From an uncultured cyanobacterium (lineage in GTDB: Bacteria; Cyanobacteriota; Cyanobacteriia; Cyanobacteriales; Nostocaceae), in contig OY970166.1 in assembly GCA_963706595.1 (NCBI GenBank), positions 4,320,001 through 4,384,000 on the forward strand: a stretch of 64,000 nt of DNA. The letters are read 5' to 3'. The notes under the pieces were generated by a model that saw only the letters and a list, made by a program, of their open reading frames with translations, was not told where the DNA came from and made no database searches. Of the stretch, positions 40,024-43,895 are shown one piece after another (position 1 is the stretch's first letter; each line of letters begins with the position of its first letter). A program made the translations under genes and the position numbers.

Positions 40024-40030
40024 AAATTTT

Positions 40031-40138
40031 GGCGTTGCTAATTTGATCATGAATTGAGATTTTTGTAATCTGCCTCAAGGTAGACTTTGCGAGCCTGAGA
40101 GCAAAATAGCACAATTCCTACGATCAATCAGCAACGCT
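40031..40138. mobile_element. MITE-like element with GGCGTTGCT terminal repeats
   Basis: ggcgttgctaatt...aatcagcaacgc; same family at 55689-55798 and 59977-60061. Confidence 0.65.
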
Positions 40139-40773
40139 CTTTTTGAACATTTTTGACTTGAGATACCTATTGCTAAAGGCTATTTAGCGAATGTGAATGG
40201 TTAATAATTATAGTTAGCTGACAAATCAGGTAGCGCGATCGCCCTACTTGTTACTTAACTTATTATAAAAATTAAAAAATCTTTTAATCATAAACCCTTA
40301 GTCTTTTACTTGGTTTTTCTTTAATCAAATAACACACAATCTTCACAAACCCAGAATTATTTATTTAGTCTATTTCTCCGAAAAATTGCCGTGTAATTCA
40401 TGTTGCTTGTAAATTTGAGAAATTTGGTAATTTAACTTTACTTTGTAATTTTTACATAAAGTTCCGGGTTACTACTGGCAAAACACTCAAGTAAACAGTA
40501 TGGTGTAAAAGTGAACTTACGAAGTATTGCTTAGTAAAATAAGCCATTAGTGTACTCGCTGAAGTTCAAGCCTCGCTAGTGCTGGAAAAAGTCATAAAAA
40601 TGCCTGATTTTTAGGTATTTACCACACTTAAGTATCTGCGATCGCGGCAAAAGTTGGATTTACGGACTGTCGTCACAAAAAACTTGAGTACGATTTTAAA
40701 CTTCTCAAGAATCTGACGACATGGATTTCAGAACATCTCAGTAATAACAGTTACAATAGGAGACATCACATCA

Positions 40774-41967
40774 ATGCTGAATTCCAAAAAAAACTTGTCT
40801 CAATTGGCAGCACGTGCTGCTGTATGTTCATTCGCAATAGCTGGAATATTCGTCCCATCGGCAGCTCGTGCGGCCAGCTTAGTCACAGGTTTTACTCCTT
40901 CGGGCGGTGCAGTTGAACCCGGTAACTATGACGTATTTTTAGATGCTGGTGACCCACTACACATAGATGTGACTGTAACCGTCCCCGCAACACCTTCCAA
41001 ACTGGACTTATTCCTACTGGAAGACCTGTCTGGTTCATTTGGGGATGATCTTAATGTAATCAAGACTTTAGTACCAAATTTAGTCACTTCCATCACAGGT
41101 ATTGTGTCTGATACCTTCTTTGGTGTTGGCTCTTATGTTGACAAACCAATTTCCCCATTTGGTTTTTCTGGTGACTATGTATATAGAACCGACTTAGCTC
41201 TGACTGCTGACACAGGTTTACTGCAAACGACTGTCAATGGACTCACCATTAGAAATGGTGGCGATTTCCCTGAATCACAACTAGAAGCACTGTTACAAAC
41301 AGCAGTTCGCGCTACTGGTGAAGTTGGCTTCCGGAATGATGCCTTTAAGGTTGTGGTTTTATCTACAGATGCTACTTACCACAAAGCTGGTGATTTTGCC
41401 TCTAGACCTCCAAATGACGGAGATGCCATTCTTGATGGTAGTCCAGAAGGAACTGGTGAAGATTATCCCAGCATTGCTCAGGTAAAAAATGCCTTACAGG
41501 CTGCTAACATTATCCCCATCTTTGCAGTCACAACCAATGTCATATCTACCTATGAAGATTTGGTAGCTCAGTTAGGATTTGGTTCAGTAGTCCAACTGTC
41601 AAGTAATAGTTCTAATTTGGTAACTGCAATCACCAGTGGTTTATCAGATGTTTTCAGAGACATCACTCTGAATGTAGAAGGTGATGATTTTGGTTACGTC
41701 CAGAGTATTACTCCTGGTGTATTTACAGATGTACCAGAAGGAGACAGCAGAACCTTCAAGGTAGAATTACTCGCTGATGGTGTTGATGATGCCAACGATA
41801 CTCTGAGTTTAGTTGCTCCTGGATTCGGAACAACATTGGTTAACGTTACTGTCAGTGATACAACCTCTGTACCCGAACCAACCACTATGTTGGGTCTGTT
41901 GGCATTCGGTGCTGTTGGGGCTTCCACCGCATTGAAACGTAAACAAAAAGCTGTCGCTACAGTGTAA
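40774..41967 (+). CDS. Secreted PEP-CTERM protein with integrin-beta-like VWA (betaI) domain
   Basis: Signal peptide ending ARA; DLSGS MIDAS at 41023-41037; YVDKP, DFPES, STDA, DYPS, IFAVT; VPEP + TM + basic tail. Confidence 0.85.
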   Translation: MLNSKKNLSQLAARAAVCSFAIAGIFVPSAARAASLVTGFTPSGGAVEPGNYDVFLDAGDPLHIDVTVTVPATPSKLDLFLLEDLSGSFGDDLNVIKTLVPNLVTSITGIVSDTFFGVGSYVDKPISPFGFSGDYVYRTDLALTADTGLLQTTVNGLTIRNGGDFPESQLEALLQTAVRATGEVGFRNDAFKVVVLSTDATYHKAGDFASRPPNDGDAILDGSPEGTGEDYPSIAQVKNALQAANIIPIFAVTTNVISTYEDLVAQLGFGSVVQLSSNSSNLVTAITSGLSDVFRDITLNVEGDDFGYVQSITPGVFTDVPEGDSRTFKVELLADGVDDANDTLSLVAPGFGTTLVNVTVSDTTSVPEPTTMLGLLAFGAVGASTALKRKQKAVATV

Positions 41968-41992
41968 AACATCACTTATATATTTAGTAACT

Positions 41993-42030
41993 GCTGTGTT
42001 TTCTGTTGAAAGACACGGCAATTTTTTTAT
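41993..42030 (+). terminator. Rho-independent terminator
   Basis: GCTGTGTTTTC..GAAAGACACGGC stem followed by a T run. Confidence 0.65.
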
Positions 42031-42221
42031 GTTGAGATTTGCCGAAATCGGGGCATGATATCATGCCCGCCTAATTAGCGCTCTTTTATGACTCTGATGA
42101 AAGAAAAGATGTAGCTTGCTTCCCCCCACTCCCCACTCCCCACTCCCTTTTTTAAGGAATTACTAAGACAGTTGTGTACCCCTCCGGTGCTAGAGTGTAA
42201 GATGACCGAGAATAACGGGAT

Positions 42222-42386
42222 ACAAGCCCAGTCCTTCTACGGCTTTCTGGTAAAATCGGAATATAGTCGCCTTATGGCATGGGGAGACTTTAAACGGACG
42301 TGGAGGGATGGTAAGACTATCTTGGGAGCATCAACCCGAAGAAGCGTCAAGGAATCCTCGGACTTTAGGACGAGGAGGTATGTCAA
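42222..42386 (+). mobile_element. Non-autonomous IS200/IS605-like mini-element (left end + omega-RNA-like right end)
   Basis: Starts CAAGCCCAGTCCTTCTACGGCTTT; ends GAATCCTCGGACTTTAGGACGAGGAGGTATGTCAA. Confidence 0.65.
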
Positions 42387-42422
42387 ATTGCATAATCTTA
42401 TGTCTTCCCAGACCCTATCTGA

Positions 42423-43895
<1,473 letters not shown>

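Follow-up and report, generated by a model that had tools for sequence, protein, structure and literature searches.

Whether a bacterium can carry the headpiece of an integrin beta chain as a surface protein, and what such a protein would do there, are the questions raised by an open reading frame (ORF) at 40774..41967 (+ strand) of the DNA analysed here, a stretch of 64,000 nucleotides from an uncultured cyanobacterium of the Nostocaceae (hereafter, the window). A cyanobacterial host is indicated by the named relatives of the ORF product, P0001 (397 amino acids; aa), and by the exosortase genes CrtB and CrtC. An initial annotation made from the sequence had read P0001 as an integrin-type betaI domain within a split hybrid domain on a PEP-CTERM anchor, and all 13 peptide stretches that it quoted occur in P0001, in the order given. 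The present analysis confirms that P0001 consists of a signal peptide, an integrin beta headpiece and a PEP-CTERM tail. P0001 is not an integrin subunit, having neither the legs nor the tail of one and no propeller encoded nearby.

Domain Architecture of P0001

The whole gene was delineated by the ORF, Pfam and NCBIfam profiles, an AlphaFold2 model and structure superposition, and all its features lie on the + strand. A Sec signal peptide is predicted at aa 1–33 (40774..40872) from hydropathy, whose top window at the N-terminus is residues 11–27, and from a conserved AxA site at A33. The sole Cys of P0001, C18, lies in this predicted peptide, leaving a Cys-free mature chain as had been proposed; the mature chain of 331 aa is acidic and Ser/Thr-rich (44 Asp and Glu, 14 Lys and Arg, 62 Ser and Thr). 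The Ig-like hybrid domain's N-terminal half (aa 34–75, three strands; 40873..40998) is based on the strands of the model, alignment from beta3 residue 58 and a profile match from position 43. It is followed by the integrin-type betaI (VWA) domain (aa 76–293; 40999..41652) and by the C-terminal hybrid half (aa 294–362; 41653..41859), which is supported by the model, superposition, profiles and a search with this half alone. The PEP-CTERM sorting signal, composed of VPEP, a transmembrane helix and a basic tail (41866..41967), is identified by hydropathy and by scores above cut-off for PF07589 (Pfam; 21.5, cut-off 20.7) and TIGR04155 cyano_PEP (NCBIfam; 23.5, cut-off 21.6), bearing out the anchor first suggested. 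PSI, I-EGF and beta-tail domains and a Cys-rich stalk are absent, the hybrid and betaI domains filling the mature chain, and the C-terminus is this sorting signal with its short basic tail in place of a retained transmembrane helix with an NPxY cytoplasmic tail.

The betaI assignment is based on several comparisons. PF00362 (Integrin_beta) matches aa 77–290 with 133 bits (cut-off 24.8; E 1.9e-38), and the profile search of the whole genome found this match only and no second betaI copy; generic VWA_4 scores only 14 bits. A sequence comparison with the PDB gave 60 matches, each of them an integrin beta chain or pactolus, and in structure the domain superposes on the beta6 betaI chain 5ffg_B over 222 residues (Z 31.3; root-mean-square deviation, rmsd, 2.2). 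A profile built from 32 PEP-type proteins gives a single continuous alignment to each of beta2 73–419 (E 4e-50) and beta3 80–431 (E 8e-45), and it matches 17 metagenomic eukaryote beta chains of full length with a probability of 100 over 311 columns; these alignments reach across both hybrid halves. When betaI is removed, the C-terminal hybrid half alone still picks out its equivalent in eukaryote beta chains (28.1; maximum of 40 shuffles, 18.4). The N-terminal half alone is found in register at 15.4, which exceeds its 40-shuffle maximum of 11.8 but is no better than a cross control (15.6).

Predicted Fold

An AlphaFold2 model of aa 34–364, built from 49 sequences without templates, has a predicted local distance difference test score of 95.8 and a predicted template modelling score of 0.90. 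Every Foldseek match listed for this model is an integrin beta chain. VIA-align places 326 of the 331 residues on beta3 58–435 (Z 36.5; rmsd 2.9), a range that we take to be the hybrid plus betaI span. The top four of 48,161 representative chains are beta chains (Z 33.6–35.3), compared with Z 16.6 for the best non-integrin VWA. For this one static model, rmsd is 2.9–5.3 to most beta chains and 8.3 to 9lt3_B. The beta2 PHE fragment 2p26_A, presumably lacking betaI (280 residues over the range 60–424), is matched by 107 residues spread across model positions 1–330 (rmsd 1.9; Z 14.2). Together with the superposition on beta3, this match supports the view that the two flanks of betaI, as modelled, form one Ig-like domain corresponding to the integrin hybrid domain. 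As AlphaFold2 had seen integrins, the sequence profiles described above were checked separately.

The alternative of a generic VWA domain was ruled out, since PF00362 scores far above VWA_4 and the betaI Z is far above that of the best generic VWA; the integrin betaI subtype claimed at the outset thus stands.

Metal Sites, Loops and Switch Motifs

The motifs used here are those of published work: the beta-MIDAS (metal ion-dependent adhesion site) motif DxSxSxxDD, the beta6-alpha7 (D/N)S motif and the beta5-alpha6 Thr (PMC6889490), and the consensus D/E...NDxPxE of the synergistic metal-binding site, SyMBS (bioRxiv 2020.04.29.069435). Conservation was counted over 394 non-redundant domains, the set left when 478 were filtered at 90% identity.

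In P0001, the beta-MIDAS motif spans 41023..41049 and provides D84, S86 and S88 for MIDAS and D91 and D92 for the adjacent site, ADMIDAS. With E167 and D199 the full MIDAS set is kept. MIDAS residues are near-invariant across the 394 domains and, among the PEP-type domains, D84, S88 and D92 are each kept in 34/35 and E167 and D199 in 35/35. The DYPS motif (aa 230–233; 41461..41472) is supported by PDB and profile alignments and by conservation, and T253 corresponds to the beta5-alpha6 Thr of typical integrins. The beta6-alpha7 loop carries (D/N)S as N278 and S279 and leads by helix alpha7 of the model into the hybrid domain (41596..41652); in PEP-type domains, Ser is found at 279 in 35/35 and Asp or Asn before it in 34/35.

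SyMBS had been listed among the matching motifs, but it is incomplete: D123, D164, P166 and E167 are present and the Asn is replaced by G162. The first SyMBS Asp lies in D123-K-P (41140..41148), invariant in 32/32 and aligned to FVDK of beta2 and beta7, and the second part in the SyMBS/MIDAS loop G162-G-D164-F-P166-E167 (41257..41274). The position is Gly in 34/35 PEP-type, 262/273 other bacterial, 41/41 propeller-fused and 28/28 divergent domains and Asn in 16/16 animal-type domains.

Two loops also differ from those of integrins. SDL2, the specificity-determining loop, is mostly 5–7 residues long, compared with about 18 in integrins (a 17-residue deletion relative to beta2), and its disulfide-bonded form is absent from P0001, the mature chain having no Cys. 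In the segment TD199A...H203-x-AGD...PNDG (41365..41421; profile alignment and conservation), the last MIDAS Asp is followed by a loop with no Lys or Arg and with three residues fewer than its integrin counterpart. This AGD-to-PN loop has 8 residues in 15/15 animal-type domains and 5 in P0001 and 17/30 PEP-type domains; G[K/R] occurs in it in 1/30 PEP-type and 14/15 animal-type domains. The Lys/Arg of this loop is the residue that we take to insert into the alpha propeller.

Proposed Function

The best explanation of these features, to which a probability of about 0.6 is assigned, is that P0001 is a monomeric, Cys-free integrin-beta headpiece that serves as a surface adhesin or matrix-binding protein anchored by PEP-CTERM. 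The initial annotation had suggested that P0001 may act as a metal-dependent adhesin or sheath protein. An exosortase system, for which the annotation had proposed a search, is present in the genome, as CrtB (501.9 bits, cut-off 300) and CrtC (350.2 bits, cut-off 225) both exceed their cut-offs. CrtB clusters with an associated protein and a polysaccharide export gene (G000 C1:5392874–5397404), and CrtC (2384270–2386838) has as neighbours an HpsJ-like gene and a protein that terminates in a VIPTP-type sorting tail. Nostoc punctiforme depends on CrtB both for biofilms and for its adhesion to the polysaccharide of hormogonia (PMC12188702).

P0001 would be exported by Sec and its signal peptide removed, after which a cyanoexosortase would cleave the PEP-CTERM tail and the cleaved protein would be attached to the outer surface or to exopolysaccharide. 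Mg2+ bound at MIDAS by D84, S86, S88, E167 and D199 would take a carboxylate of the ligand, which might be supplied by an acidic protein residue or by uronic acid in a polysaccharide. The low-affinity state would be restrained by Ca2+ bound at ADMIDAS (D91, D92) together with the beta6-alpha7 loop. Because helix alpha7 of the model runs into the anchored hybrid domain, ligand or tension might shift affinity through an integrin-type hinge; this step is tentative, its odds being put somewhat below even. P0001 would work without an alpha chain and could not signal across the membrane.

Several points weigh against this explanation. Both hybrid halves are present in 71 of the 334 relatives with betaI, the C-terminal half only in 40 and neither in 223; the family can therefore do without the hybrid domain, which may serve simply as a stalk. 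The incomplete SyMBS may mean that the site is tuned differently. ScyD, ScyE and ScyF are PEP-CTERM proteins that act in the periplasm (PMC12188702). The network that produced the model was trained on integrin structures. Lastly, two read runs contained 0.12 and 0.07 of the words and gave five short contigs at 90–99% identity that come from relatives, which is no evidence of transcription.

In P0001, a whole betaI plus hybrid headpiece with MIDAS, ADMIDAS and switch loop is available as a Cys-free unit of 331 residues, which should express easily. With it, two long-standing questions become testable: whether the affinity switch of the beta headpiece operates without an alpha chain, and in which order the parts of the integrin head came together.

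A Variable Genomic Slot

The P0001 gene lies between a PLD/helix-hairpin-helix (HhH) gene on one side and, on the other, a gene that we take from our own reading of its sequence to encode ATP synthase beta. P0001 was not found in any of 10 congeners in which both flanks are conserved. Seven of these congeners have between one and three different PEP-CTERM genes in the slot, their heads being NIDO (3), DUF1194 (1) or unnamed; in the remaining ones, one has DUF29 and two show no PEP-CTERM gene in the stretch fetched. The slot PEP-CTERM genes have upstream DNA and the tail region in common. As other PEP-CTERM heads occupy the same slot in congeners, the P0001 head belongs to a set of surface modules that are interchangeable. 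For cyanobacteria, the headpiece offers a concrete mechanism of binding for one PEP-CTERM protein, and its locus reveals a chromosomal slot for swapped surface heads.

These observations bear on two other explanations. P0001 might be a self-associating structural subunit of a sheath or coat, in which MIDAS binds an acidic loop of the neighbouring molecule and no outside ligand is involved. The acidic, Ser/Thr-rich mature chain would suit such a subunit, and PEP-CTERM proteins have been proposed as components of the polysaccharide layer (PMC12188702); against it, P0001 was not found in 10/10 congeners and unrelated heads take its place there, a pattern that suits an optional binding module more than a core coat protein, and a structural subunit is considered unlikely. 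P0001 might also have no specific ligand and be a store for cations or inert cargo carried on a mobile PEP-CTERM cassette, as the strain-level gain and loss and the lack of expression evidence in reads would allow. Against this, MIDAS and the switch loop are near-invariant in the 394 domains and the gene has an intact frame and a terminator, which make inert cargo very improbable. A ligand-binding surface adhesin remains the preferred reading.

The variable slot corresponds to 40024–42449 of the window and to loci L256–L266, and the congeners have tandem PEP-CTERM genes in it. A non-coding leader common to the congeners' slot PEP-CTERM genes (40321..40663, + strand; blastn pieces of 66–80% identity in L256, L257, L258, L259, L260, L262 and L266) is probably the promoter region. 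AGGAG at 40758–40762, upstream of the ORF, resembles a ribosome-binding site. Downstream, a terminator-like hairpin and T run (41992..42030, + strand; hairpin 41992–42020) was found by sequence scan in a region common to the congeners' slot genes; with four terminator-like sites found in the region and 2.2 expected, the hairpin is weak evidence by itself. The promoter scan gave two sites (5.9 expected), the Rfam search gave one chance match only (E 0.95), and the repeats found around P0001 were short two-copy matches only. The best score of an Atlas search was 0.89, and its matches serve as leads only. A dispersed repeat of about 185 bp (window 42203–42387) ends in TCAA; the genome contains 10 copies of it with an E of 1e-10 or better, and many are present in the congeners. 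It presumably resembles the end of IS200/IS605-type elements.

Breadth of the Family

Relatives were collected as the best 78 genome loci, the 334 proteins with betaI and 120 long relatives. The initial annotation had mentioned integrin-beta-like domains in a few cyanobacteria; the module extends beyond these, as relatives occur in at least five phyla and in the protist Mantamonas. The best 78 loci comprise 38 in Cyanobacteriota, 35 in Pseudomonadota, two in Myxococcota and one each in Planctomycetota and Campylobacterota, with one unassigned. The match runs through betaI in 112/115 related proteins, and the C-terminal hybrid half is present in 36 of the best 78 loci. The module is carried by RTX, cadherin-like, Calx-beta, lipoprotein and type IX secretion system (T9SS)-tail surface proteins. 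Eukaryote integrins may be among the 704 clusters that score E 1e-30 or better, and these are not taken as a bacterial count.

The family is sparse. Counting the centre genome in each sample, it was found in 15/301 cyanobacterial genomes, in 2/401 genomes of the Asticcacaulis class, and in 19/201 genomes of a phylum sample centred on a Myxococcales genome, where one match is strong and all but one are at E 1e-9 or worse against PF00362.

The domain occurs in diverse contexts. Cyanobacteria of the same family (L208–L213) have proteins of 460–560 aa with betaI and RTX and no hybrid domain, MIDAS being degenerate in some of them. Tandem betaI or hybrid plus betaI units are present in P0116, P0117, P0118, P0120, L035 and L045, with up to five in P0120, and L035 contains three adjacent paralogous genes. 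In a divergent Desulfurobacterium-type clade, the predicted model has a VWA domain inside an Ig domain and its best match is an integrin beta chain (Z 23.2; 304 residues aligned; rmsd 8.2). P0382, P0384 and P0385 have VWA_4 with an M23 peptidase region and, as read by eye, the VWA domain is seemingly wrapped by Ig strands; the wrap may therefore predate the betaI subtype.

Propeller-betaI Fusions and the Question of an Alpha Partner

FG-GAP and Integrin_beta occur in one chain in 41/120 long relatives and in 12/78 genome loci, all 12 in Pseudomonadota. The fused proteins, for example P0268, P0278, L063, L076 and L087, are secreted RTX proteins with an integrin-alpha-like propeller of seven repeats and a betaI domain; L076 and L087 are from cultured Asticcacaulis strains. 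Seven FG-GAP repeats in the first 490 aa are followed by RTX repeats, betaI without hybrid and more RTX. With the N-terminal 495 aa of a fused protein, all 60 rows listed are integrin alpha chains (best E 7e-10). An FG-GAP gene neighbours the betaI gene at 1/78 loci and at none of the PEP-type loci.

The initial annotation had noted no alpha partner nearby. This holds for the 64-kb window, which has no FG-GAP match, and for its surroundings, the nearest match lying about 183 kb from the P0001 gene; elsewhere in the genome FG-GAP is present, with 16 matches confined to C1:1.756–1.759 Mb and 4.177 Mb. The gene at the former site (L215, G000 C1:1754771–1759025, - strand) has 14 repeats and an RTX tail, reads as one repeat, a frameshift and then 13 repeats in frame, and lies directly downstream of a TIGR03032/DUF4915 gene.

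These proteins raise the possibility that P0001 is the beta half of a bacterial integrin-like pair that docks a seven-bladed FG-GAP propeller and binds ligand at the interface. The fusions, with an N-terminus matching integrin alpha, speak for such a pair, as do the 8-residue AGD-to-PN loop kept in 34/34 fused chains and the FG-GAP gene of 13–14 repeats in the genome itself. The contacts argue otherwise. The loop is shortened in P0001 and without Lys/Arg, and all 34 fused loops likewise contain neither residue. The aromatic residues of the propeller cage, a motif described in PMC3192720, are kept in only 3/216 fused blades, being absent from the other 213 and from 13/13 blades of the genome's own FG-GAP protein. 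In addition, 2.6 Mb separate that gene from the P0001 gene and a frameshift follows its first repeat, and the fused chains have about 390–770 residues of RTX linker between propeller and betaI, with a hybrid domain in 0/26. A pair including P0001 is accordingly judged improbable, and a headpiece acting alone is preferred. The Asticcacaulis fused chains (L076, L087) offer a direct test of alpha/beta-like docking in bacteria.

Phylogeny and Integrin Origin

Trees of betaI were inferred under LG+C20 from 75 rows (quick tree) and then from 54 rows (careful tree), for which 26 long or redundant rows were dropped and five VWA_4 outgroup rows added, including one dropped row that was cut anew; the rows include no canonical protist integrin, Sib or CglD sequence. 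Animal-type rows form a clade (100/100) inside a group of 37 rows (99/94) that contains P0001, Trichodesmium, Mantamonas and fused proteins and excludes 12 divergent bacterial rows and the outgroup. No bacterial row is nested among the animal-type rows (100/100). In the careful tree, the outgroup is not one side of a branch and the bootstrap is not settled. Approximately unbiased (AU) tests did not reject a grouping of animals with the outgroup on one side (p 0.279 for the quick tree and 0.0996 for the careful one) and allowed animals with Mantamonas (p 0.61, with a log-likelihood 7.6 above the quick tree). The suggested bearing on integrin origins is real, and the AU tests leave room for transfer in either direction.

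P0001 could also be viewed as a captured eukaryotic domain, a mimic that binds matrix proteins of a host or grazer, extending the published interpretation of the Trichodesmium gene as horizontally transferred (bioRxiv 2023.10.19.562135). The sparse and patchy spread (15/301, 2/401 and one strong match in 201) agrees with capture, and basal animal integrins were not rejected (p 0.28 and 0.10, rounded). However, divergent bacterial clades already have the wrap-around Ig domain, as in the Desulfurobacterium model, and Gly at the SyMBS position in 28/28, the bacterial rows stay outside the animal-type clade, and the SDL2 loop is absent. Mimicry by a captured domain is thus a rather improbable account of P0001.

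A bacterial origin of the integrin head is favoured, by the author's own estimate at somewhat better than even odds, on these sequence comparisons. A more detailed scenario, doubtful as a whole, is that the head was a bacterial invention: the betaI-hybrid module, complete with metal sites and allosteric switch, would be an old part of bacterial surface proteins and would work alone in those like P0001; in a proteobacterial branch, the integrin-alpha-type propeller and betaI of one secreted chain would dock on each other; and eukaryotes would have taken the module over, Mantamonas-type proteins keeping the bacterial form, and added the SyMBS Asn, SDL2, the Lys-cage contact, legs and tails.

Comparison with Known Systems

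The hybrid plus betaI unit is not new to databases, as it is already in the Trichodesmium protein. Beta-like proteins have been listed in cyanobacteria (PMC2651865), and a Trichodesmium sequence was described as homologous to more than 450 beta-chain residues in a study that called the link between the prokaryotic domain and integrin subunits obscure (PMC3192720). Other reports hold that the Trichodesmium protein has only one domain (bioRxiv 2020.04.29.069435) or is the lone prokaryotic case, ascribed to transfer (bioRxiv 2023.10.19.562135). Nothing on bacterial betaI appears in the available parts of PMC6450878, PMC12422189 and PMC3034196. A literature search, whose coverage excluded most subscription papers, found no report of a PEP-CTERM headpiece, of the breadth of the family or of the propeller fusions.

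The protein of Trichodesmium erythraeum IMS101 found here (L027) is probably the published one. It is 49% identical to P0001 aa 30–359 and contains the hybrid N-terminal half, betaI and the C-terminal half. Unlike P0001, it lacks both signal peptide and PEP-CTERM, extends further into Ig/cadherin-like repeats, and keeps the 8-residue loop with Lys.

The closest structural counterpart is the metazoan beta headpiece (6AVU/3NID, 9P96, 4NEH, 4UM9), with the same insertion of betaI into a split Ig hybrid domain (321–326/331 residues; Z 33–36; 25–30% identity) and with MIDAS, ADMIDAS, PNDG, DYPS, IFAVT and the (D/N)S loop in common. P0001 differs in having no PSI, I-EGF or beta-tail domains, NPxY tail or disulfides, in the SyMBS Gly, the cut SDL2 and the shortened Lys/Arg loop, and in its PEP-CTERM and the lack of an alpha gene nearby. 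A further betaI-type fold is the I domain of pactolus (2IUE; Z 27.4; rmsd 2.1 over 205 residues). Pactolus is a mammalian, MIDAS-defective beta-like chain that is not known to have an SDL loop or an alpha partner.

Among eukaryotic adhesins, the Dictyostelium Sib proteins share with P0001 the vWA_SIBA-E region (PF24909; E 8e-15), the only part of them that matches; their Ig_SibA repeats and talin-binding tail are absent from P0001. Sib proteins are reported to be confined to dictyostelids and to be without the three cation motifs (bioRxiv 2020.04.29.069435). A Sib-like protein of Mantamonas plastica (P0142/P0338; EukProt) lies outside dictyostelids. It is a single-pass membrane protein with hybrid plus betaI, Ig_SibA repeats and NPxY-like motifs, is 55–56% identical over betaI, has the bacterial SyMBS Gly, and scores 355 bits on the bacterial profile; human beta chains reached about 170 in a different search. 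What sets both the Sib and the Mantamonas proteins apart from P0001 is a single membrane pass together with Ig repeats and an NPxY-like tail.

In bacteria, CglD of Myxococcus xanthus is a surface adhesin with a beta3-like VWA/MIDAS and a beta-sandwich, and requires its MIDAS Asp (bioRxiv 2023.10.19.562135). By this description it is set apart from P0001 as a 1130-aa, Cys-rich, gliding-linked lipoprotein with thrombospondin-type repeats; a Cys-rich lipoprotein character and DxDxDG repeats are absent from P0001. The cyanobacterial PEP-CTERM substrates of CrtB and CrtC have the same signal peptide, PEP, helix and basic tail as P0001 (PMC12188702, in whose available text integrin or von Willebrand domains are not mentioned). 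Most of the others are without a known domain in that account, whereas P0001 has a defined ligand-binding fold.

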